The notes under the pieces were generated by a model. That model was not told the DNA's origin, searched no databases, and saw only the letters and a list, made by a program, of their open reading frames with translations. 64,000 bases of DNA, taken from assembly GCA_947623175.1 (NCBI GenBank), contig CANQGK010000003.1, forward strand, positions 9,667 through 73,666, read 5' to 3'. Below, piece after piece: positions 7,668-18,563 of the stretch. Each line of letters begins with the position of its first letter. Position 1 is the first letter of the stretch. The position numbers and the translations under genes are program-made. The DNA comes from an uncultured Clostridia bacterium (GTDB lineage Bacteria; Bacillota; Clostridia; Oscillospirales; Acutalibacteraceae).

Positions 7668-9776
7668 TTACGACTGTTGGGTGCGCTCAAGGATATCAAG
7701 CTGAATCCCTTTTCTCAGCGTTACGTAAAAAGCGGAAAATCCCGAAACGCGCACAACTAAATTTTGGTATTTTTCCGGATGAGCCATAGCGTCTATAAGC
7801 ACCTCGCGGGAGGTTGCGTTTATCTGCATTTCCTGTCCGCCCTTTTTAAAGTATGTTTTTACGAGCGCCAGCAGCTTTTCGCGCTTGCCGTCCTTGAACA
7901 TGGAGGGTGAGAATTTCTGATTAACCACCGTTCCGCTTGCAACCTTTATATAGTCGGGCTTTGTAACGCTGTTTACGGTGCCTGTGGCGCCGCAGGTATC
8001 TTTACCGTAAGTGGGCGACGCCGCGTCGGACAAAGGCTCCCCGCGCTTTCTGCCGTCGGGGGTTGCGTTTATAACCGCTCCCGCGTAAATATTGTTTGTA
8101 TTCGCCGCTATGGCTACGTAAATTCCGCCGCCGTCATGCGTTTTATACCGTGTAAAAAGCGAGCTCAAATAATCCACGAACCAAACCGCGTATTTATCGA
8201 CGAAATTATCGTTGTTGCCGTATTTGGGAGCGGCAAGCAGCTTTGCGCGCAGTTCCTCGTACCCTTCGAAATTGCTGTTTAAAGCGTCACGAAGCTCCGA
8301 AAGCGTAGCCTCTTTATCGATAAATACCACTTTTTCTATCGCCGCCAACGAATCGCTCGTAGTGCCGACCCCCATAAGCGCCACGCCGTGTACCGACGGA
8401 TAAATACTGCCGCCGTCGTTTATATCAAGTCCGCGGCCTATGCAGTCATAGCAAAAGCAGGATAAAAACGGCTGCTTGTAATACTTGGGATTTAGGTTGT
8501 TGTTGCTGTTGTTAAACCAAGCGATGTAGGTATCTGCGCCATGCTTTAGCTGTTTTTCGAACCTGTCCATAAATTCGTCCATGGTTTTAATTTCGCTTAT
8601 ATCGCCGAGCGCCGGGCCTACCGAGCCGTTGACGGCGCTTACGCCGTTATTGAATAGGTAATCGAAAAATTTCGGCGTGTCGAACCGCCCGTCCGACCAG
8701 GGCGGCTGTTTGCCGGACATGAAATTTTCGATGCAGCCGACCATGGAGTAATTGTAAACGTCCTCGTCGGCGTAACCGTAACGCTTAAGCGCCGCGATAT
8801 TTACGCAGTCGTTCATAAGCGCGGGATAGCCTATTCCCGTACCTATAGACTTAAGGCAGGCGTCCAAAAATTCGTCCGGCGTGTCGGGCGTAATGCGTGC
8901 CGACAGGTTAGGCCCGGGTACGGCGCAATTGCGAACGGCGTCCAGAATGCAAAAGCTCAGCTCGTTTACCTGACATTTTTCGTTTACGTTCATGCCGCCT
9001 ATACATATATTGGCAACGTCCTTGTTTTCCAATTTTATAAAGCAGTTTTCGAGCAATTCTACCGCCCGCTCCTTGGTTAAGAGCCCCGCTTTGACGTCTT
9101 TTTCGTAAAAGGGATACAGGTATTGATCCATGCGTCCGAACGCCATAGCGTACCGGTCCTCCAAAATAAAGGCGGTATAACAGAGCCAAACGAGCTGGAG
9201 CGCTTCGGCGAAGCTCTGCGGCGCGCCGACGGCCAGCGCCTTACAGTTTTTCGCGATAAAATCGAGCCTTTCGTCGTCATATCCCGCTTCGCCCTTGTGA
9301 GCCTCGGCAGCCGCGGCGTAACGGCTTATCATTTGCAAAAAGCCCTCGAGGGTACGCTTCATCGCTTCCAGGGTTTCGACCTTTTCGGGATCGGACTTGT
9401 GCTTCTCGAGCGATAATTCGATCTCCTTTATCAAGCCGGGAACGCCGACTGCGAGGGTGTGCTCATAATTCGGAGTGTAGTGGTCGAGATTGGTCAGAAA
9501 ATCCCGCTCGCCGTACTGCTTGGTTATGGATTTTGCGTAGGAAAAAAGCGGCTCTTCTGCTTCCGTCCACAAGCAAAACTCGTTTCCCGCGATAATTTCA
9601 TGCGGGTATACGCGCGGTTCCGGCTCGGTAAAGAGTGAAAAAATCGCATTTGCCCGCGCCGCGGTTATGGGCGCCGCAGGATCTGCGGAATAGCCGAGAT
9701 AGCGAAAATAAAAAGACGCTCTTTTCCCCGGGGGCAGTATTGCGAGTTCTTTTCGTAAATTTTCGAACAGCTTCAT
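7668..9776 (-). CDS. glycyl radical enzyme (PFL-like superfamily, single-Cys GCxE eliminase/dehydratase type), substrate unknown
   Basis: The C-terminal VVRVSGFSAFYVTL is the glycine-radical motif. The Cys loop MVGCIENF has one Cys followed by Glu at +2. Start set at MKLFENL (about 702 aa); the tracked ORF extends to 9836. Confidence 0.85.
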   Translation of the reverse strand: MKLFENLRKELAILPPGKRASFYFRYLGYSADPAAPITAARANAIFSLFTEPEPRVYPHEIIAGNEFCLWTEAEEPLFSYAKSITKQYGERDFLTNLDHYTPNYEHTLAVGVPGLIKEIELSLEKHKSDPEKVETLEAMKRTLEGFLQMISRYAAAAEAHKGEAGYDDERLDFIAKNCKALAVGAPQSFAEALQLVWLCYTAFILEDRYAMAFGRMDQYLYPFYEKDVKAGLLTKERAVELLENCFIKLENKDVANICIGGMNVNEKCQVNELSFCILDAVRNCAVPGPNLSARITPDTPDEFLDACLKSIGTGIGYPALMNDCVNIAALKRYGYADEDVYNYSMVGCIENFMSGKQPPWSDGRFDTPKFFDYLFNNGVSAVNGSVGPALGDISEIKTMDEFMDRFEKQLKHGADTYIAWFNNSNNNLNPKYYKQPFLSCFCYDCIGRGLDINDGGSIYPSVHGVALMGVGTTSDSLAAIEKVVFIDKEATLSELRDALNSNFEGYEELRAKLLAAPKYGNNDNFVDKYAVWFVDYLSSLFTRYKTHDGGGIYVAIAANTNNIYAGAVINATPDGRKRGEPLSDAASPTYGKDTCGATGTVNSVTKPDYIKVASGTVVNQKFSPSMFKDGKREKLLALVKTYFKKGGQEMQINATSREVLIDAMAHPEKYQNLVVRVSGFSAFYVTLRKGIQLDILERTQQS

Positions 9777-9855
9777 AATATTCCCTTCTTTCTTAATTTC
9801 CGCTTTCAGTATATTCAAACCTCTGCAAAGTATCAATGCACAAGTTTAATAATTC

Positions 9856-9884
9856 TTGACAAAATTAATATAATAGATTATTAT
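9856..9884 (+). promoter_or_regulatory. putative sigma-A promoter of the second AraC gene
   Basis: TTGACA, 17-nt spacer, TATTAT, about 35 nt upstream of the 9919 start. Confidence 0.4.
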
Positions 9885-9918
9885 AAAACCATACCCACAC
9901 AAAAACGGAGGCGAAAAA

Positions 9919-10701
9919 ATGAAATACCTGACCGCGAAAATCCTACCCAAAATTGATTTTGCGCATACCTTCAGCGCCGATTCTTACCGGCTTAAAATAA
10001 AGCCGAAGCCGAATACGATCGAGATTGCTTATATTTCAAAGGGAAGCTTGCATTTTGATACCGACGGCGAGGATTTGCTTATAAAAAGCGGCAGTATTGT
10101 CCTCAACCCATATCTGCGACCGGTAATTTTCCATTCGGACGAATACCACGAGCATCACACCGTTTCGTTTTTAATGGAATTTTCCCTTTCCGACCTTCCC
10201 GAAAGCCCTTCCTCCGTTCCCCTGCCGAGCGTGATTTCATCGCCCAATGAGCGCTGTTACCGCCTTATCGACGATATTATACGGATCCACACCCTTAACG
10301 CCGACAGCGGACTCAAAACGGCGGGTATGTGCTTGCAGCTGCTTTATGAAATCGGCGCAAACCCCGACCGCCTAGACATAAGCCCTTATATAAAAAAGGT
10401 AAAAAACTACGTCTTTCGGCATCTTAACGAGCCTATCCGCCAGGCGGATATCGCAAACGCTCTCGGCATAACGCCGGAATATTTGTGCGACGTTTTTAAA
10501 AGATGCGAAAACACCACCGTTATGTCTTATGTAAACCGCGTAAAGCTTGACAAAATTAGGGCTGTTATGGAAAAGGAACACCTGCCGCTTTATAAAGCGT
10601 CCGAGCTGTACGGCTACGCCGATCCGAACTACGTAAGCCGCCTCTACAAAAAAATCTTCCACACCAATATTTCCGACCGCATAAAAAATAAAGACTCATA
10701 A
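9919..10701 (+). CDS. AraC family transcriptional regulator
   Basis: 260 aa with a C-terminal AraC HTH (IRQADIANALGITPEYLCDVFKR...ELYGYADPNYVSRLYKK). It is divergent from the GRE operon. Confidence 0.85.
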   Translation: MKYLTAKILPKIDFAHTFSADSYRLKIKPKPNTIEIAYISKGSLHFDTDGEDLLIKSGSIVLNPYLRPVIFHSDEYHEHHTVSFLMEFSLSDLPESPSSVPLPSVISSPNERCYRLIDDIIRIHTLNADSGLKTAGMCLQLLYEIGANPDRLDISPYIKKVKNYVFRHLNEPIRQADIANALGITPEYLCDVFKRCENTTVMSYVNRVKLDKIRAVMEKEHLPLYKASELYGYADPNYVSRLYKKIFHTNISDRIKNKDS

Positions 10702-10703
10702 AC

Positions 10704-10734
10704 GAACCCCCTCGGGATTTATCCGAGGGGGTTC
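10704..10734. terminator. bidirectional hairpin terminator
   Basis: gaaccccctcgg-N7-ccgagggggttc, a 12-bp perfect stem. It separates the AraC gene from the convergent TIR gene. Confidence 0.7.
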
Positions 10735-10757
10735 ATTAAGCACGTATCTTAGAAGAC

Positions 10758-12629
10758 TCAAGAGTCCAGCGTAATCCACAAAGCGGGGCGAACAGCGTCA
10801 TAATTGATGCCGACACCGTTACCATCGAAACTGACCGAACCGGCACAGTCGACAAGAGCAGCAGCGAGCTGAGAATAGCCGGGCGACCGGAGCCACCACC
10901 AGCACGCAGCTTCGCCGCTTGCTGTTTTATAATCTTCTTTCGTATATGCTCCCTGCGACTTTGCATAAGCAGTCGGAGCACATCTGCGTGATTCGTCGTT
11001 TGTGAAATACTTTTCCGCTTCATTAATGCTTAATAAGAATATTTTATCTTTTGTTGCTCTTCCGGAATTTGTATCGTGTTCGGGATTCTTATCTGCACTG
11101 ACGTTTGTCGTCGTTATTTTTTTCTGTTCCTCGGCACTGAAAGCATTATTGAGAAACGTTCCGTTAAGCCATGTTCTGAGAGTGCATTTTTCCCAAGTTA
11201 CGTCAGTAAAAGATTTATTATACGGTTGGCAGTCAAGCGCGTATTTGCTGATTATAAGAGCTTTATTACCTTTTTTCTCAAGAATAAGCCATGCAATTTT
11301 TTCTTTTGCTTTTCCGGTCTCATCTTGATAGTATGAGCCAAAATACAGCGAGTTTTTATTTTGCTCGTTTATTATTTCTTTCATGCGAGCAATCTCTTTA
11401 GCCTTTCGCTCGCTTATGTTGGCAATGTATCCTTCAACTTCTGCTTTCAACTTTTCGTCACCGAAGCGGAGAATTTTTTTATAATTGTCCTTTTCTTCAA
11501 ATGAATTGCAGCAATCGGCTAATAGTTCGCGATAGCTTACACCTATTTCCGCCATCAGCTTGCCAAGGTAAGCTTCGGCGTTTTCGGGATCAAGGTCGAG
11601 CACTTTTTCGCAATATTCATCGGCTTCTTTCCATTTTTTGTCTTCCAAAAACAGAAAGGCGCGTTTCAGCAGCGGTGCGACGTTGGCGTTTCCGCCAATC
11701 ATTGCCGTCTCTTTTTCAACCACCTTCGGCATATCTAAAGGAACGATTTTCTTTATCCCACGAATCAAATCCTGCATAAACCCGAGCTTTGACATATCCT
11801 GTGCTTGCAGATGGGAAAATTCTTCCGGCAAATCATAAGGATCCATATCCTTATAAGCGGGGATAAGCATCTTCTTGGCACCGTTTTTAATAAGGGAGAG
11901 ATAACGGCTCCATTCGTTCTTAACCCAAACGGCATTAAAATACTCGGGTTTTGTACCAAGTGCAACCATTACCTTTGCGGAATTAAGTGCCGCAAATATG
12001 TACGGCTCGTAAGCCGTGCCGAGCTTGTCTTCGAGCGTAATGCGCGAGAAAAACACTTTAAAGCCCTCCTGAGTCAGCTGATGGTAAAGATCGTTTGCCA
12101 AAACCGAATCGGGTGTACGACGACCGTTATTATCGGTTTCTTTATAACAAATAAAAACGTCAAAGGGTTCTTCTTTTTGAGAAATTGCAAGAATGCCTTT
12201 TTGGATTTCGTTGATTGCATTTGCTTCTTTTTCGTAAATGGCTTTTTGATAAGAGTCCGCATTATTCAAAGCGGATTTGTAATTATCGTCATCAAAAATA
12301 GACGTAAACTGCGCCCGGTTGACGGTCGGTACACGTTTCCGTGTTGCGGGATCCTCCACGTATTCTATACCGTAACGGCATAATACCAGCGACCAATACG
12401 CCTCCGCGTCGGTATTATCCTCATTGAGTATCTGCTCATAAATACCCATCGCCTTATCAAATTCGTTATTACGGCGAAAATGGTTCGCCCTGTCGTACAT
12501 ATTTGCGCGCTTTTCGTCGTCAAGCTTGGGAAGTGTTTGTTGAGTTCCGCAGTATTCGCACTCGGCAACCGTTTCGTTATTTTGAATTTCTAATGCGGCA
12601 CCGCACATTTTGCATTTAAAGATTGACAT
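10758..12629 (-). CDS. zinc-ribbon / TPR-like / TIR domain protein with a C-terminal DUF6273-like domain
   Basis: 623 aa. The N-terminus has CKMCG...CEYCG (zinc ribbon). Residues ~155-295 (PFDVFICYKETD...KVFFSRITL...AVWVKNEWSRYL) look like a bacterial TIR_2 domain with the conserved W...E. A helical TPR-like segment follows (EADEYCEKVLDLDPENAEAYLGKL). The C-terminal domain ends WWWLRSPG...RPALWITL. Confidence 0.8.
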   Translation of the reverse strand: MSIFKCKMCGAALEIQNNETVAECEYCGTQQTLPKLDDEKRANMYDRANHFRRNNEFDKAMGIYEQILNEDNTDAEAYWSLVLCRYGIEYVEDPATRKRVPTVNRAQFTSIFDDDNYKSALNNADSYQKAIYEKEANAINEIQKGILAISQKEEPFDVFICYKETDNNGRRTPDSVLANDLYHQLTQEGFKVFFSRITLEDKLGTAYEPYIFAALNSAKVMVALGTKPEYFNAVWVKNEWSRYLSLIKNGAKKMLIPAYKDMDPYDLPEEFSHLQAQDMSKLGFMQDLIRGIKKIVPLDMPKVVEKETAMIGGNANVAPLLKRAFLFLEDKKWKEADEYCEKVLDLDPENAEAYLGKLMAEIGVSYRELLADCCNSFEEKDNYKKILRFGDEKLKAEVEGYIANISERKAKEIARMKEIINEQNKNSLYFGSYYQDETGKAKEKIAWLILEKKGNKALIISKYALDCQPYNKSFTDVTWEKCTLRTWLNGTFLNNAFSAEEQKKITTTNVSADKNPEHDTNSGRATKDKIFLLSINEAEKYFTNDESRRCAPTAYAKSQGAYTKEDYKTASGEAACWWWLRSPGYSQLAAALVDCAGSVSFDGNGVGINYDAVRPALWITLDS

Positions 12630-12635
12630 AATAGT

Positions 12636-13322
12636 TTATACTCCTTTTATCACGTTCCCTAAAAATTCAAAAGCTGTTTTGGCAAAGCCCCCAAACGGTA
12701 ATAACGAAATGACAGAAAAAATGGCTTCCTTGCCGGCACTCATCAAAAATTTTTTTAATCCTTCTTTTGTAAAATCGCCAAGGAACGACTGTATAGCATT
12801 ATCCGATTTAGCTATTGACTTTATATTCTTCTTAGTTTCGGGAGAAAAAATATCCGTTAACGTTTCGTCTTCAATGCATATTTCGGTAAAACAATCAAGC
12901 GGCAATCGAAGCAATTTCCTGTTTAGTGAACATTCATCATACCATCCTTTTTCTTCGATGAAATGACGAGCCTCATTTAAAACATTAATGTCTTGAATTA
13001 ATATTTTGACATAATGATCCGACTCGTCATATTTTGCATTTTTTACCGATTCTGCAAATGAAATTTTCCAATCAAAACCTTTATGTGGATATTTCAGTTC
13101 CTTTCGCTCTTTCAGCGCTCTTATTCTTGACTGTGTTATGCCCAATTGCTTTGATAAAGCGTAATCGTCATACGGTTCTCCTACTTTAATACAATGCTCA
13201 ATGTATTCTGAAAAAAGTAAAACCTCTAAATCATTTTTGGATGTGCTCCCAAAATTTTGGCAGAAGTATAATTCCGATATTTTATCGAAACAAGACTGCT
13301 TTTCTTCATTTGAAAAATCCAT
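12636..13322 (-). CDS. hypothetical protein (possible HTH; hydrophobic/amphipathic C-terminal tail)
   Basis: 228 aa with no family I recognise. YALSKQLGITQSRIRALKERK resembles an HTH. The C-terminus is AIFSVISLLPFGGFAKTAFEFLGNVIKGV. Its stop lies 6 nt before the TIR gene start. Confidence 0.55.
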   Translation of the reverse strand: MDFSNEEKQSCFDKISELYFCQNFGSTSKNDLEVLLFSEYIEHCIKVGEPYDDYALSKQLGITQSRIRALKERKELKYPHKGFDWKISFAESVKNAKYDESDHYVKILIQDINVLNEARHFIEEKGWYDECSLNRKLLRLPLDCFTEICIEDETLTDIFSPETKKNIKSIAKSDNAIQSFLGDFTKEGLKKFLMSAGKEAIFSVISLLPFGGFAKTAFEFLGNVIKGV

Positions 13323-13333
13323 AGTAATCCACC

Positions 13334-14035
13334 TTACTTTAGTAGTCTACACTTCTTATTCCTATCCTCAATCAGTATAATCAACTCGTTCGCCGATTTT
13401 TTGGTATTATCCGCGTTGTTTGCGTTTACGGCGGCGGCAAGCTCGTTGATTTTCAAAGTGATTTGTGCTTCTTGCGCGGCTAATGCCGCATTGCTCATCG
13501 GATCTGAATATCTGACCGCTTCGTATACCTTTTTGCATTCGTTTTTAATCTCTTCGGTTTGTGCTCTCGCAATCAAGCCTTCCGAATCAACGGTTAAAGA
13601 TTTGATGAAAAAAGTCTGCGCTTTTGTTTTATCGTCAACCGCGGACACAACCTCCGCCGCCGCTTTGGCTTTTATAACCGCGATTGCGTTAAAGGCAAGG
13701 ATTATAAGGCAGACGATTATTCCTATCCAATTCGGCAAATTGGGTATTGCCATGCAAATCGCGCCGAATATAACGGTCAGAATAAGCCCCGTATAGCTTA
13801 TTTTAATAAGCGGTAAATTGTAAAACAGCTTTTGTAAATTTTCGGCTTTAAATGCGATAAACGCGCAGTAAAGCTGACCTATAAAGGCAAGGGTGATAAA
13901 TACGTAACCCGACCAAAAAGCCCCGCCGAATTTGGTCAAACCCGCCGATTCGTTCGGAGTTACAAAACAGATAATATTGAAAAGGGCAAAAAGAATTACC
14001 CAAGCGGCAAAGTATGATTTAAACGTCTTTTTCAT
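13334..14035 (-). CDS. membrane protein (about 4 TM helices plus a C-terminal coiled-coil)
   Basis: 233 aa. There are four hydrophobic stretches in the first ~125 aa, then an Ala/Glu/Lys-rich helical tail. It lies 16 nt downstream of the SPFH gene and 11 nt upstream of the next gene. Confidence 0.6.
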   Translation of the reverse strand: MKKTFKSYFAAWVILFALFNIICFVTPNESAGLTKFGGAFWSGYVFITLAFIGQLYCAFIAFKAENLQKLFYNLPLIKISYTGLILTVIFGAICMAIPNLPNWIGIIVCLIILAFNAIAVIKAKAAAEVVSAVDDKTKAQTFFIKSLTVDSEGLIARAQTEEIKNECKKVYEAVRYSDPMSNAALAAQEAQITLKINELAAAVNANNADNTKKSANELIILIEDRNKKCRLLK

Positions 14036-14051
14036 CTTTTATTCTCCTGAC

Positions 14052-15455
14052 TTATAGTTTTTCACCGCACTCGAGGCAGAACTTGGCTCCGCTCGGAAGC
14101 TCCGCACCGCATTTCGCGCATTTCGCAATAAGCGGCGCGCCGCACTCCATACAGAACTTGCCTTTGTTGGTTTTCTTACCGCAAGCGGGGCAAATAATTT
14201 CGTTTTCGTTCGGCAATTCTATTTTGGCGCCGCATTCGAGGCAGAAATTTGAATTTTCCGGAACTTCGCTGTTACAGTTAGGACACTTGATTTTAGCGGT
14301 TTGTTGAGGACTGTCATTCGCGGGCATAGTACCGAAGCCCTTGAACATTTCGCCCATTTGTCCGCTTACGGCGCCGGCGGCAGCCATACCGACGCCGAGA
14401 CCTATCATATCGCCGGCAACTCCGCCGCCCGAGCCGCTTATGTTCATATTACCGATACCTTCCGCATAGGCTTTTTGAACTTCGGCTTGAATTACGTCCT
14501 TTTCGTTATAGCCCTTTGCCCGCATTACTTCCGCTTCCGCAAAGCCGGACATTTTTGCAGCCTGAGCCTCTGTCTGCGCACGGATAAGCTCTCTTTCGGC
14601 TTCTCGGCGGGCTTTTTCGGTAACGGTGGTTTCCTGCTCGAGAATCGCCTGTCGCTCTGCGGCGGTAATACTCGCCTGCGATTCCGCCATTGCCGTCTTT
14701 ATGGTTGTTTCCGCTTCGACCATCTTCTTTTGAAGAGAGATCGTATGTAATTCACGAATCCGCTTAAAGTTGGGATCGCTTTCGGGCAAAACAACGGTAT
14801 TCACATAAAACTCGGGAATTGTAAGTCCGTATTCCTCGAAACCGGGAATAATACTTCTTCTCAAAACGTCGGACAATAAGCCGAGACTTTCATCCACTTC
14901 AAGAATATTTATGTTTTGCGACTTAATACAGCTTGAAAGGTTGGTTTTGACGGCGGTAGAAATCAAAGGACGGAAAGAAGCGGATAAAGATTTGGTAAAA
15001 CCGCCGCTTCTGTCATCCCAAGCAATGCCGTTCATCGTTCCTACGATTTTAACAAGCAGCTTGCGGGGATCCGAAACCATTAGGTTCATTTCACCCGAAG
15101 CGCCTATTTCAAGCGGAACTCCGAAGGTGGGATCGATAAATCTTACCTTGCTGTCGGTACCCCATTTTATAGCCATCTGAACGGTTTTATTTATAAAATA
15201 AACCTCGCAATGAAACGGCGTATCACCGCCGGTAGTGCGATTAAGCGCTTTACCGATTTTCGGTATGTTCTGTGTTTCAAGGGTATATCGCCCCGGCCCG
15301 AACAAATCCAAAGCCTGACCGTTCATAAAAAAGATTGCTTCCTGCGACTCATGAACGATTAACTGCGTGGTCGTATTAAAGTCCTCGCACGGATGTTTCC
15401 ATATAAATGTGCTGTTATCACCCTCGTATTTAATTATCTGTGCTATTTCTGCCAT
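14052..15455 (-). CDS. SPFH/band-7 domain protein with three C-terminal zinc ribbons (COG4260 / B. subtilis YdjI-like)
   Basis: 467 aa. The N-terminus IIKYEGDNSTFIWKHPCEDFNTTTQLIVHESQEAIFFMNGQ is typical of YdjI-type SPFH proteins. It continues with an EA-rich coiled coil, a Gly-rich segment, then CPNC...CLECG, CPACG...CMECG and CAKCG...CLECG. There is a GGAGG RBS. Confidence 0.8.
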   Translation of the reverse strand: MAEIAQIIKYEGDNSTFIWKHPCEDFNTTTQLIVHESQEAIFFMNGQALDLFGPGRYTLETQNIPKIGKALNRTTGGDTPFHCEVYFINKTVQMAIKWGTDSKVRFIDPTFGVPLEIGASGEMNLMVSDPRKLLVKIVGTMNGIAWDDRSGGFTKSLSASFRPLISTAVKTNLSSCIKSQNINILEVDESLGLLSDVLRRSIIPGFEEYGLTIPEFYVNTVVLPESDPNFKRIRELHTISLQKKMVEAETTIKTAMAESQASITAAERQAILEQETTVTEKARREAERELIRAQTEAQAAKMSGFAEAEVMRAKGYNEKDVIQAEVQKAYAEGIGNMNISGSGGGVAGDMIGLGVGMAAAGAVSGQMGEMFKGFGTMPANDSPQQTAKIKCPNCNSEVPENSNFCLECGAKIELPNENEIICPACGKKTNKGKFCMECGAPLIAKCAKCGAELPSGAKFCLECGEKL

Positions 15456-15476: not shown

Positions 15477-15502
15477 GTATCAAAAGGTGTACTTTTTGAG
15501 AA
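15477..15502. repeat. hix-like recombination site, left (26 bp: 12-nt half-site, GT core, 12-nt half-site)
   Basis: GTATCAAAAGGT-GT-ACTTTTTGAGAA. Positions 15478-15499 are the perfect reverse complement of 15616-15637. Confidence 0.7.
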
Positions 15503-15625
15503 AATGCGGATTTTGACTTTTTAATGGGGCTTTTTTACAAATTTCTGTTAATAAACGGCGAAATATGTTGATTTTTCACTATTTATATGATATAATCCAA
15601 TTTATATAAGAGCTATCAAAAAGTA
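15490..15625. promoter_or_regulatory. putative invertible promoter segment (inverton), about 136 bp between the two crossover cores
   Basis: It is bounded by inverted 26-bp hix-like sites and sits adjacent to a serine invertase gene. It carries a strong promoter and is the only DNA upstream of the SPFH-TIR operon. Confidence 0.6.
15568..15596 (+). promoter_or_regulatory. near-consensus sigma-A promoter with extended -10, currently pointing away from the operon
   Basis: TTGATT (15568-73), 17-nt spacer ending in TGa, then TATAAT (15591-96). It is on the plus strand, so it reads towards the 3' end of the recombinase gene. Confidence 0.6.
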
Positions 15626-15638
15626 CACCTTTTGATAG
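15613..15638. repeat. hix-like recombination site, right (26 bp)
   Basis: CTATCAAAAAGT-AC-ACCTTTTGATAG. It is embedded in a 34-nt palindrome (15609-15642, 13-bp arms) that overlaps the recombinase stop codon. Confidence 0.7.
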
Positions 15639-15640
15639 CT

Positions 15641-16381
<741 letters not shown>

Positions 16382-16423: not shown

Positions 16424-16960
16424 TCAATAATTTTCCGCGCTGATTTCAAAAAAGCTTTGCGGATGATTGCAGACGGGGCAAACCTCCGGCGCGGCGGTGC
16501 CTACGATGATATGACCGCAGTTGCGGCATTCCCAAATTTTAACCTCACTGCGGGCAAAAACCTGAGCCGTTTCGACGTTTTTCAAAAGGGCGCGGTAACG
16601 CTCCTCATGATGCTTCTCTATAGCCGCCACCATGCGGAAACGGCGGGCAAGCTCGGGGAAGCCCTCCTCCTCGGCGGTCTTGGCAAAGCCCTCGTACATA
16701 TCGGTCCACTCGTAATTTTCCCCGTCAGCCGCGGCGGCTAAATTTTCGGCGGTAGAGCCTATGCCCTCAAGCTCCTTAAACCAAAGCTTGGCATGCTCTT
16801 TTTCGTTGTCGGCGGTCTTTTGGAAAAGCGCCGCGATCTGCTCAAAGCCATCTTTTTTGGCTTTTGACGCAAAATAGGTGTACTTGTTGCGCGCCTGCGA
16901 TTCGCCCGCGAAGGCGGCTTCAAGGTTCTTTTCGGTTTGTGTTCCGGAATACTTACTCAT
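16424..16960 (-). CDS. rbr: rubrerythrin
   Basis: 178 aa with a ferritin-like diiron domain ([14 protein letters not shown]...EKEHAKLW...EKHHEERY) and a C-terminal rubredoxin-like CRNCG...CPVCNHP. Confidence 0.92.
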
Positions 16961-17243: not shown

Positions 17244-17267
17244 CAGTCTGTCTAAAAACCCCAAATC

Positions 17268-18199
17268 TCAAGCGAGGTTTGGGGTTTTTAGATATAGCCT
17301 TTCAAAAAACAGATAAAAACAGGCAGATATGGTGAGAGGGTGGGAACTTTTCCACCTATGAATTGCATATTTTTTGAGATTCATCGCTGCAAATTTAAGC
17401 CTAACCCAATTAGTGACTTGGGATAAGCCTCGGTATGGAGTATATCGCATTGCATATTTTTCTTTTGCGTCTGCGAATAGTCAATGCAATCAGATTACAA
17501 TACGTTTTGCGTGGAACAACGTCCGCGCCCGCTTTGTCGCACGGTCTTACCATACGACAGTATGCTCTCAACCGTGCTTCGCGCGGAACACGAACGGCGT
17601 TCTCACGCAAAATCTTCGACCCGAGTCGGAGCGGATTTTTTCGTCCGGCAAGGAAGAGGACGCAGGAATACTGTCGTATTTCAAGGACGATGACACAGGC
17701 GGCGGATAAATCCGTCCGCCTCGGGCGCATTGTAATCTGATTGCATTGACTACCCGTTCGATTGTTTCTTTTCGTCGATTATACAGTTCCTTGTATTGTG
17801 GCGTATGCCGTATATCCTCCCATCAAACGCTACACTGTCATGCACGTTGCCAGGGTTTACCGTAACATCCATTACGTATCCGTTTTTATCACAGCCCGTT
17901 TGTGCCTCGTATGCAAAACATTTCTTGTGCTCTCCTTTGTTAAATACGCCGCTCTCCGGGTCGGTGACAGATACGGTAATTTCTTTCTCTTCCGGCGCCT
18001 TCGATTTGTTAAAGGGCTTTTTATCGTGGTCTTCTCTGTCCTCGTTGATCTCTTCCATTAACTGCTTTTCGTATTTCTTTGCTGCCTGTGGTACTGCCTT
18101 CTTTACTGCTTTCTTCAAATTTGCGTTGGCTTTTATGTGTGTTCCGTCTATGAACACCGCCTCCGGCGACAAATATCCCGCATTATTGATTTCTCCCAA
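17268..18199 (-). pseudogene. IS1182-family transposase, fragmented (internal deletion/insertion, N-terminus missing)
   Basis: Fragment 17750-18199 contains FIDGTHIKANAN...DPESGVFNKGEHKKCFAYEAQTGCD...NPGNVHDS. Fragment 17268-17450 contains MRYTPYRGLSQVTNWVRLKFAAMNLKKYA, the family's C-terminus. Frame-compatible IPHFSTISYNFKHRY continues up to about 18310 without a start codon. Confidence 0.7.
17478..17752. repeat. 275-bp element bounded by perfect 24-bp inverted repeats (MITE-like), nested in the IS remnant
   Basis: tagtcaatgcaatcagattacaat (17478-17501) is the exact reverse complement of 17729-17752. The outermost TA on each side could be a TA target duplication. The interior is GC-richer than the surrounding DNA. 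Confidence 0.6.
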
Positions 18200-18367: not shown

Positions 18368-18452
18368 TGGTGGGAGAGGATGGATTCGAACCATCGAAGC
18401 GAAACGCAGCAGATTTACAGTCTGTCCCCTTTGGCCACTCGGGAACTCTCCC
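18368..18452 (-). tRNA. tRNA-Tyr (GTA), class II with long variable arm, CCA encoded
   Basis: The reverse complement is GGGAGAGTTCCCGAGTGGCCAAAGGGGACAGACTGTAAATCTGC...GATGGTTCGAATCCATCCTCTCCCACCA. The acceptor stem is GGGAGAG/CTCTCCC, the anticodon loop is CTGTAAA, and the T-loop is TTCGAAT. Confidence 0.9.
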
Positions 18453-18487
18453 ATATTTACTTGTTTATTTGAAATCGCGGTCACAGC

Positions 18488-18563
18488 TGGAGCTGGTGGA
18501 CGGACTCGAACCCCCGACCTGCTGATTACAAATCAGCTGCTCTACCAACTGAGCTACACCAGC
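18488..18563 (-). tRNA. tRNA-Thr (TGT), CCA encoded
   Basis: The reverse complement is GCTGGTGTAGCTCAGTTGGTAGAGCAGCTGATTTGTAATCAGCAGGTCGGGGGTTCGAGTCCGTCCACCAGCTCCA. The anticodon stem is GCTGA/TCAGC and the loop is TTTGTAA. The T-stem has one mismatch. Confidence 0.85.

Follow-up and report, generated by a model that had tools for sequence, protein, structure and literature searches.

DUF6273, a domain resembling C-type lectins (CLec), has been described as a target of diversity-generating retroelements (DGRs) in gut phages (bioRxiv 10.1101/2024.10.15.618418; PMC10743442), and for multicellular bacteria CLec sensors diversified by DGRs have been reported in combination with TIR, caspase-like or NTPase modules (PMC10907252, PMC7159879, PMC7517822). 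DGRs and their CLec targets are established knowledge, as are the targeting of DUF6273 by DGRs and variable proteins that bear a TIR domain. Here we describe a four-gene operon (g1 to g4) of an uncultured Clostridia bacterium in which a TIR-DUF6273 protein, g4, is encoded together with an SPFH protein and a membrane protein; it lies at positions 10758-15455 of a 64,000-nucleotide stretch of contig CANQGK010000003.1 (assembly GCA_947623175.1), hereafter called the window. An earlier reading made from the letters of this stretch without database searches (the sequence-only reading) had proposed an undescribed TIR-based defence or membrane-surveillance system, and the word "undescribed" remains apt for the particular architecture, but not for the concept, which has been published for other phyla (PMC10907252, PMC7159879). 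Our comparisons indicate that the four genes form a real and widely conserved operon of gut Clostridia and that g4 is a member of a large family of DGR variable proteins.

The operon and its conservation in gut Clostridia

The genes and domains of the operon are the following.

14052-15455, minus strand: g1, 467 amino acids (aa); SPFH (Band_7_1) domain, coiled coil, Gly-rich segment and three C-terminal Zn-ribbons; no transmembrane (TM) helix
13334-14035, minus strand: g2, 233 aa; protein with four TM helices, a long stalk helix and a three-helix bundle; universal partner
12636-13322, minus strand: g3, 228 aa; accessory protein without family, optional in related cassettes
10758-12629, minus strand: g4, 623 aa; Zn-ribbon (C6, C9, C24, C27)-TPR-TIR-TPR-DUF6273; no TM helix in the window copy
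11787-12158, minus strand: TIR domain of g4 (residues 158-281), with the Glu239 codon at 11913-11915
10770-11267, minus strand: DUF6273 (C-type-lectin-like), putative ligand-binding domain of g4 (residues 455-620)
10780-10905, minus strand: DGR-type variable region (VR) of g4 with conserved 3' end, encoding CWWWLRSPGYSQLAAALVDCAGSVSFDGNGVGINYDAVRPA

The gaps between the four genes, 16, 11 and 6 nucleotides (nt) in the window's list of open reading frames (ORFs), leave no space for separate promoters; these gaps and the coordinates had been given exactly in the sequence-only reading, and all four ORFs are intact, with no frameshifts. Its descriptions of g1 as an SPFH/Zn-ribbon protein, of g2 as a four-TM protein and of g4 as a Zn-ribbon-TPR-TIR protein are likewise supported by Pfam and hydrophobicity. 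Pfam recognizes Band_7_1 (129.7 bits, cutoff 24) and three C-terminal Zn-ribbons in g1, as well as TIR_2 (46.5 bits, cutoff 28; 6e-12), flanked by TPRs on both sides, and DUF6273 (112 bits, 2.9e-32) in g4, the latter domain also matching a PHROG that bears the annotation 'Hoc-like head decoration' (3.9e-9). No Pfam family was found for g2 or g3, and a hydrophobicity scan detected four hydrophobic helices in g2 and none in g1, g3 or g4. Scans of the four window proteins with PADLOC, NCBIfam and PHROGs gave no system-level match, and the earlier statement that the gene content matches neither Thoeris nor CBASS, Pycsar, SPARTA or retron systems is upheld by PADLOC and NCBIfam. None of the four proteins is named in the public sources checked.

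Related loci and contigs, designated by L-numbers, were sampled by alignment of the g3 family, which yielded 9 genome and 30 metagenome loci, and further contexts were sampled from the opposite side, anchored on g4 homologs and on g2 homologs. Searches with the four window proteins (tblastn) recovered the order g1-g2-g3-g4 in L008, L017-L024, L027-L031, L039 and L042, with a second tandem g4 paralog in some of these loci. The order g1-g2-(g3)-g4 was found in about 16 distinct contig lineages and is kept down to 26-40% identity for g1 and g2; judged by these alignments, the four-gene arrangement is far beyond chance. When g3 serves as the anchor, 15 of the 22 loci with enough flank carry all four genes, 1 carries g4 only and 6 have a solo g3. 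SPFH, g2 and TIR-DUF6273 genes, on the other side, are present in every sampled context anchored on g4 or g2, and the g1-g2-g4 linkage spans 26-67% g2 identity, differing recombinases, islands and integrative conjugative elements (ICEs). As g3 is absent from L048, L051/L052 and L056/L057, and replaced by a different 169-aa gene in L058, the invariant core is g1-g2-g4 and g3 is accessory; its candidacy as a core component was rejected after the contexts anchored on g4 and g2 had been sampled. The expectation that the four genes would be conserved as a unit across genomes holds for g1, g2 and g4, but not for g3. The conserved core consists of a recombinase gene (usually upstream), an invertible promoter and the genes for the SPFH protein, the four-TM protein and the TIR-lectin protein, with g3 as an option.

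The records name Lachnospiraceae, Oscillospiraceae, Ruminococcus and other Clostridia as hosts. The cassette family is very common: one g2 variant occurs in 535 index blocks of the assembly collection, and the homolog search returned at least 8000 candidate g4-like proteins.

Some departures from the common order are worth recording. Solo g3 homologs with 44-63% identity and without SPFH, g2 or TIR neighbours occur in L012, L013, L015, L016, L037 and L043, beside small XRE-type helix-turn-helix (HTH) genes on the opposite strand in L012 and L016, a type I restriction R subunit in L013 and a BspA-type LRR surface protein in L016. In L009, g3 is directly followed (10694-11581) by a gene for a Zn-ribbon-TM helix-DUF6273 protein without TIR, with an in-frame stop at codon 17, and then by the SPFH gene, g2, a 186-aa gene without assignment and two tail-anchored TIR paralogs without ectodomains.

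DGR targeting of g4

The most direct evidence of DGR targeting is provided by L023, L053 and L055, which are one 6,885-nt cassette (g1 through the reverse transcriptase, RT) from different samples. Their templates are identical, and the cassettes differ pairwise at 17-22 positions, all of them within the 126-nt VR and 16-22 at adenines of the template repeat (TR), with no difference elsewhere. In L023 a bAvd-like ORF precedes and an RVT_1 reverse transcriptase follows the template repeat, all directly after g4 (bAvd 9e-9 and RVT_1 5e-20 in L023, L053 and L055), and the resulting layout, variable protein-Avd-TR-RT, is by its components that of a canonical DGR cassette. Both L023 and L032 carry, some 600 nt downstream, a second copy of the g4 3' end that is 85-89% identical to the first, and the mismatches between VR and TR fall at TR adenines in 13 of 13 and 17 of 18 cases, respectively. 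The template used for further comparison is:

TR_L023, template repeat of L023: begins GTGCTGGTGGTGGCTCCGGTCGCCCGGCAATAATCAG

The same signature is seen at the level of protein families. The g4 homolog search returned scores of separate 90%-identity clusters sharing identical length, and a variation map of homologs listed, 70 of them 829 aa and 28 of them 796 aa long, has less than 1% non-consensus residues except in the last ~50 positions, where 16-30% of residues are off consensus. Eighteen hypervariable columns are present in the 829-aa class, with up to 15 different residues per column, and 99.4% of the residues in these columns fall within the 15 amino acids that an AAY codon can yield when its adenines are mutated. 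The VR-homologous region is the only hypervariable part of the g4 family. Together, the alignments place g4 in a large Clostridial family of DGR variable proteins, in which an error-prone reverse transcriptase, working from the template repeat, rewrites approximately 18 AAY codons at the tip of DUF6273.

A gene for an FRG-domain protein (350 aa) overlaps the end of the RT gene by 11 nt (13012-14064 in L023, 14721-15773 in L053 and L055); it is conserved together with the DGR RT and may be an unrecognised DGR accessory gene. Genes for TnpV and a calpain-like Peptidase_C2 protein lie further downstream. We would also like to mention that a fragment of a group II-intron-type RT (YADD) just upstream of the SPFH gene of L039 (4473-5168) is unrelated to the DGR RT.

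The VR of the window copy lies at the end of DUF6273 and at the 3' end of the ORF. Its alignment to TR_L023 is ungapped, with both flanks identical, and 23 of 30 mismatches fall at template adenines, against an expectation of 27% (binomial p = 2e-8), the template in this comparison being that of a relative and not a cognate one. The differences between the encoded peptide CWWWLRSPGYSQLAAALVDCAGSVSFDGNGVGINYDAVRPA and the template-encoded CWWWLRSPGNNQNNAANVNNDGSVNYNGNNVNNDNDAVRPA are almost all at Asn (AAY) codons. The adenine bias of the mismatches and the identical flanks argue that window g4 carries a diversified VR. On this reading the window copy is a remote or orphan DGR target, and its cognate DGR either lies in another part of the genome or has been lost; targets at a distance from any RT are common (PMC7159879).

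Predicted topology, partner proteins and promoter switch

A single TM helix (KD19 2.1-3.5) is located between the TIR-TPR-helical linker and DUF6273 in 118 of the 120 top g4 homologs, and nearly all g4 proteins derived from the sampled loci likewise carry it. The N-terminal side of this helix is flanked by a Lys/Arg-rich stretch, KAAKKRKK, which according to the positive-inside rule places the Zn-ribbon-TPR-TIR part in the cytoplasm and the hypervariable lectin outside. In nearly all relatives g4 is thus predicted to be a single-pass membrane protein with TIR in and lectin out, and with an outer lectin in 118/120 homologs the family looks like a surface receptor, not like a cytoplasmic abortive-infection sensor; the window copy is atypical. 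TM-less variants are also found in L010 and in protein P0126, so that a cytoplasmic lectin is rare but not unique, and the window copy would sense inside the cell, if active at all.

The outer module is usually a TPR-like stalk with one or two DUF6273 domains. It consists of RCC1 repeats in L008, of a region of about 500 aa without Pfam family in L024/L054, and is nearly nil in the two L009 paralogs. Some receptors have two DUF6273 domains, among them P0123 (L051 8961-12221) and P0127 (L048 9001-11943). In P0123 the TM helix (766-784) separates the two, which would put one lectin domain in the cytoplasm and the other outside; in P0127 the pair follows the TM helix. An ectodomain stalk of variable length is suggested by L042 (10424-10875), where the stretch that joins the TM helix to DUF6273 includes tandem repeats of 99 nt (33 aa) sharing 92-95% identity.

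The TIR segment is the most conserved part of g4: most cassettes share 84-95% identity here and the most distant copies, for instance those of L010 and L039 and the second paralogs at loci of the L017 type, 66-74%, to be compared with 25-70% for DUF6273. A WVKNEW motif, which includes Glu239, is present in 119 of the 120 homologs and reads WVRNEW in the remaining one, and an FDVFICY motif is present in 114/120. From the motif position and general knowledge we take Glu239 to be the catalytic residue. The profile check that the sequence-only reading had asked for thus has a clear outcome, namely the TIR_2 match given above and an invariant Glu239, and the TIR domain of the window can be considered genuine by profile and motif. 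Among PDB sequences the TIR segment comes nearest to a vertebrate TLR TIR, with a weak match (E = 9e-4).

As regards the partner proteins, g1 is present in all sampled cassettes at 40-64% identity. Its Zn-ribbons are optional: they are absent from 376-402-aa versions (L023, L048, L051, L056), which end in a weak SHOCT match, and a 624-aa SPFH protein of L039 (5404-7278) has Zn-ribbons at both the N- and C-terminus. A PDB sequence search with g1 returned Zn-ribbon noise and weak prohibitin matches only. The g2 family comprises 3484 unnamed cluster representatives. In the window protein the TM helices span residues 8-26, 44-62, 79-97 and 103-121, and in the structural model (pLDDT 76) the last of them extends as a long stalk helix, behind which comes a three-helix bundle, well predicted and expected to be cytoplasmic. 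The g3 family is tight and equally unnamed, with 269 cluster representatives of about 228 aa each, and g3 has no match in Pfam, PADLOC, NCBIfam or PHROGs. Helices dominate its model (pLDDT 87), which also has a small sheet and, at the C-terminus, an amphipathic helix. The only significant fold match of g3 is the Legionella effector SidN/Lpg1083 (E = 4e-7, TM-score 0.43), and a function derived from this match was rejected, as none is transferable. The structure search could not confirm the label "HTH-like" that had been attached to g3.

A pair of inverted repeats brackets a core situated exactly between the stop codon of an invertase gene and the start codon of g1:

15641-16276, minus strand: serine recombinase (invertase), 211 aa, Pfam Resolvase 98.8 bits; immediately upstream of the switch
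15616-15637, unstranded: distal arm of a perfect 22-nt inverted repeat (TCAAAAAGTACACCTTTTGATA), 100% complementary
15500-15615, unstranded: 116-nt invertible core between the repeats
15478-15499, unstranded: proximal arm of the 22-nt inverted repeat, 22 nt upstream of the g1 ATG
15568-15596, plus strand: best sigma-70-like promoter (TTGATT, 17 nt, TG-n-TATAAT), facing away from g1

The repeat motif occurs at these two sites only in the window (2 matches vs 0.03 expected). The putative promoter matches 10 of 12 consensus positions and has an extended -10 element, with a score of 11 in the antisense and 9 in the sense direction; as the best promoter is directed away from g1, the window operon appears OFF. 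The suggestion in the sequence-only reading that the operon be cloned with its promoter locked ON fits well with an invertible promoter at this place. The same design is found in L027, L048 and L051, with AAAAGTGTACTTTT-type repeats, cores of 111-118 nt and invertase homologs (57-68% identical) in the same position, and all four serine-invertase switches appear OFF as assembled. A second, unrelated design, in L017, L020, L023, L029 and L030, has 22-28-nt ACATAAT...ATTATGT repeats with cores of 177-269 nt beside a tyrosine recombinase; here the promoter faces g1 and all five appear ON. The recruitment of two recombinase classes to the same operon family argues that switchable expression has been selected for.

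An exact look-up of the window invertase found nothing. Three assemblies from different samples, L001, L002 and L047, have proteins identical to those of the window and share its orientation. All three break at the base corresponding to window 15597, 142 nt upstream of g1 and within the invertible core. The common break point may reflect mixed orientations or upstream strain variation; a simple k-mer effect would not account for its distance.

A conjugative element with relaxase, ParB, TraG/VirB4-like, sortase and CHAP-lysozyme genes carries the commonest cassette (L023, L053, L055, L059) as its cargo. One form of this element encodes a 796-aa g4 with DUF6273 together with bAvd, TR, RT and FRG (L023, L053, L055), and a second form encodes a 1026-aa g4, which has the ~500-aa outer region and no DGR (L024, L054). 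L054 is the same conjugative element as L023/L053/L055, with a different g4 ectodomain, and the sequences suggest that the sensor end is swapped as a cassette between element forms. ToxN neighbours one g2-anchored copy and a PIN/Phd pair neighbours a g4-anchored copy. Carriage on conjugative elements and islands, together with such toxin-type neighbours, gives the family the flavour of a conflict system. The cassette is not phage-borne as a rule, since the N-terminal 440 aa of g4 have no tblastn match in annotated plasmids or INPHARED phages and an alignment search with g2 found one IMG/VR contig only.

The operon of the window sits in an island of GC 0.39-0.40 at 11-14 kb of the window, compared with about 0.48 in the flanks, and the AT-richer island with an invertase and insertion-sequence (IS) debris next to tRNA genes had been correctly recognized: besides the resolvase there is a truncated DDE transposase at 17750-18199, and tRNA-Tyr and tRNA-Thr lie at 18368-18563. 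A rubrerythrin gene followed by a hairpin with a 19-bp perfect stem (16424-16960, 17251-17292) adjoins the island on one side, and a convergent AraC-type regulator and a glycyl-radical (PFL-like) enzyme on the other (7668-10701). Nothing evident links the rubrerythrin, AraC-type and PFL-like neighbours, which are ordinary genes of the chromosome, to the operon.

Candidate functions and relation to known systems

The balance of the evidence tips slightly towards a phase-variable receptor, in which ligand binding would trigger the activity of a TIR domain held on an SPFH scaffold. As DUF6273 is the variable region of a DGR, it is the obvious sensor. In such a scheme the recombinase would flip the promoter so that only part of the population expresses the operon, which would limit its cost; g2 would anchor an oligomeric g1 SPFH scaffold under the membrane, and this scaffold would hold the receptor and keep its TIR domains apart or poised. 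Binding of a matching ligand (most plausibly a phage, or another foreign surface or protein) to the lectin would cluster the receptors and assemble TIR active sites, and NAD+ cleavage would then lead to growth arrest or death, or to the production of a signal. The DGR would supply an anticipatory repertoire of specificities, with g3 as an optional adaptor or regulator, and the g4 receptor may in this way work as an anticipatory immune sensor. A bolder version is possible, if on the doubtful side: the family could be a counterpart of Toll-like receptors in gut Clostridia, with an outer lectin continuously rediversified by a DGR, which would recognise phages or foreign surfaces of other kinds ahead of their entry, and a signalling TIR domain in an SPFH (flotillin-like) microdomain, phase-variable and spread by conjugation. 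If true, bacteria would possess an anticipatory, repertoire-based immune receptor at their surface.

Several points weigh against the receptor. Window g4 is one of the two TM-less exceptions among the top 120 homologs and, relative to TM-bearing relatives, lacks in frame about 190 aa that span the linker and the TM helix; its 623-aa form exists in a single record, an exact look-up having found nothing in other assemblies. Neither a template repeat nor an RT (a YxDD-containing ORF of more than 200 aa) is found within the 64-kb window. The ON and OFF calls come from consensus promoter matches only, and no lineage was seen in both orientations, among them L001, L002, L047 and closely related groups, so that the switching itself we infer. 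Fold searches gave no informative relative for g2 (generic helical bundles only, Foldseek against the PDB) or for g3 (weak, non-significant similarities to HTH proteins), and hence the roles assigned to these two proteins are conjectural; NADase function, ligand, topology and complex formation are likewise all predicted from sequence. No PADLOC model matches the operon. An extracellular sensor is unusual for abortive-infection systems. Note also that ICE-borne DGRs of Bacteroides diversify pilus-tip adhesins, not immune sensors (PMC11601372).

What sets the window copy apart from its relatives could also mean that it is a decaying relic, one that has lost its DGR and the TM segment of g4, has its promoter OFF and persists because the loss is recent. 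We regard this as rather unlikely. The lack of a TR or RT in 64 kb, the loss of the ~190 aa with the TM helix that 118/120 homologs possess, the 623-aa form known from one record only, the best promoter facing away from g1 and the IS debris nearby all fit with decay. However, the four ORFs are intact and tightly spaced, with no frameshifts, the deletion in g4 is in frame, and at its 3' end the VR does not differ from an active target. TM-less variants recur in L010 and P0126; OFF may be a common state, given that all four serine-invertase switches are assembled OFF; and remote DGR targets are well known (PMC7159879).

For the family as a whole, the main rival of the receptor is a surface adhesin or colonisation factor, whose lectin would bind host glycans, mucus, other bacteria or partners in conjugation. 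Adhesion and immune evasion would then be what phase variation and hypermutation serve, as in other variable proteins of the surface, TIR would be a cytoplasmic module for oligomerisation or regulation and not a suicide or immune effector, and the SPFH protein and g2 would organise a membrane patch. The lectin is predicted to be extracellular in 118/120 homologs, invertible promoters are typical of surface structures, the commonest cassette resides on a conjugative element with sortase and CHAP genes, the pilus-tip adhesins diversified by ICE-borne Bacteroides DGRs offer a precedent (PMC11601372), and most cellular DGR targets are surface proteins (PMC8144416). We nevertheless consider an adhesin unlikely: a passive anchor would hardly account for a TIR segment that is conserved above all other parts of g4 and has an invariant catalytic-type Glu, versions that are TM-less or have a cytoplasmic lectin exist (the window copy, L010, P0126 and, with its first DUF6273, P0123), an LPXTG or wall-anchor motif was not noticed, and tandem paralogous TIR receptors on one scaffold resemble sensor arrays.

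The mechanism favoured by the sequence-only reading, in which the SPFH and four-TM proteins sense membrane perturbation and activate a cytoplasmic TIR domain for abortive infection, with the C-terminal domain of g4 as an accessory, seems to us very unlikely. It would be consistent with a YdjI-type Band_7_1 protein g1, with the invariant g1-g2-g4 linkage, with a window g4 that is TM-less, i.e. cytoplasmic, and with Glu239 in the TIR domain. Nothing points, however, to a sensing of membrane perturbation by g1: sensor-like properties are confined to the hypermutated lectin domain, which is outside the cell in most homologs, the evolution of g1 and g2 is that of structural partners, and a PspA-type stress component is not found nearby. 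A chance juxtaposition of a generic SPFH module (g1-g2) with an unrelated g3-g4 pair, for which one could cite the solo g3 of 6/22 loci and the frequency of SPFH proteins as housekeeping genes, has a vanishingly small probability, as it is effectively refuted by the g1-g2-g4 linkage in every sampled g2- or g4-anchored context and the 16/11/6-nt gaps leave no separate promoters.

How, then, does the operon compare with what is known? Like BPP-1 Mtd, Treponema TvpA, the gut-phage 'tentaclins' and Hoc-like proteins, g4 has its VR at the extreme C-terminus of a lectin-like domain and undergoes adenine-specific rewriting of AAY codons, with bAvd-TR-RT directly downstream in L023, L053 and L055. Unlike the phage members of this group, it is not a tail or head protein but a cellular multidomain protein with a Zn-ribbon-TPR-TIR module that is always co-operonic with SPFH and four-TM partners, and its window copy has no local TR/RT.

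The logic is shared with the putative antigen sensors of conflict systems described by Doré et al. 2024 (PMC10907252) and Kaur et al. 2020 (PMC7159879) and with variable proteins of cyanobacteria (PMC7517822), in which a hypervariable CLec/FGS domain is coupled to an immune-type effector, TIR being among those listed, and in which remote targets without an adjacent RT are also common. Those systems, from cyanobacteria and Chromatiales, contain STAND, MoxR or vWA NTPases and were described as intracellular. No MoxR, STAND, GTPase NTPase or vWA was found among the operon proteins or the neighbours of the sampled cassettes, and membership in the STAND/VMAP ternary conflict systems was rejected, the NTPase and vWA components being missing. 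The present family differs further by its TM helix, its SPFH and four-TM partners and its invertible promoters, and by its occurrence in unicellular gut Clostridia and on conjugative elements.

Thoeris shares with the operon a TIR protein as the presumed sensor or enzyme and one or several tandem TIR paralogs per partner set (L017, L027, L050). Its ThsA component has no counterpart by SIR2, SLOG or Macro Pfam match or by PADLOC match in g1, g2 or g3, and ThsB itself is matched only at E = 0.011 (PADLOC; NCBIfam ThcB4 26.2 bits vs a cutoff of 220). Membership in Thoeris was rejected because its defining components are missing, and specificity here would come from the DGR-mutated lectin domain.

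For YdjI-type SPFH proteins we take the Bacillus subtilis pspA-ydjGHI operon as the comparison. As in YdjI, g1 is a Band_7_1 protein without a TM helix of its own, and its gene stands next to that of an integral membrane partner. In contrast to that operon, g2 has no recognisable family and g1 ends in a triple Zn-ribbon or a SHOCT-like segment, and no PspA/IM30 gene is found in or next to any sampled cassette or among the scanned window proteins.

With animal Toll-like and IL-1 receptors the family shares, in 118/120 homologs, the order ectodomain-single TM helix-cytoplasmic TIR. This is an analogy of layout only, and no homology is claimed beyond the TIR fold: the ectodomain is DUF6273 (RCC1 in L008) and not LRR/Ig, diversity arises by reverse transcription, and the window copy is TM-less. 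The switch resembles known invertons (Hin/Mpi-type serine, Fim-type tyrosine) in that a recombinase gene stands beside a short inverted-repeat segment with a promoter-like site upstream of the operon. It differs from them in that both orientations were not seen in any lineage and in that two unrelated recombinase classes serve one operon family.

Literature searches combining DGR with SPFH, DGR with Lachnospiraceae and TIR, and SPFH with TIR and anti-phage gave nothing relevant in sources other than subscription-only work, and within the same scope we found no description of the combination seen here, i.e. a single-pass layout with TIR inside, SPFH and four-TM partners, two kinds of invertible promoter and Clostridial conjugative elements. 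The system is compact enough for direct testing of NADase activity, phage protection, adhesion and SPFH-client interaction. Until now the coupling of DGR sensors to immune effectors has been inferred chiefly in multicellular cyanobacteria and in purple sulfur bacteria, as intracellular NTPase-based systems. The g4 family would extend the idea of DGR sensors to abundant Clostridia of the human and animal gut, adding a receptor-like layout, with the hypervariable lectin outside and TIR inside in most members, as well as promoter inversion and conjugative spread as further layers of population heterogeneity, and its obligatory SPFH and four-TM scaffold would give bacterial SPFH proteins a concrete client.

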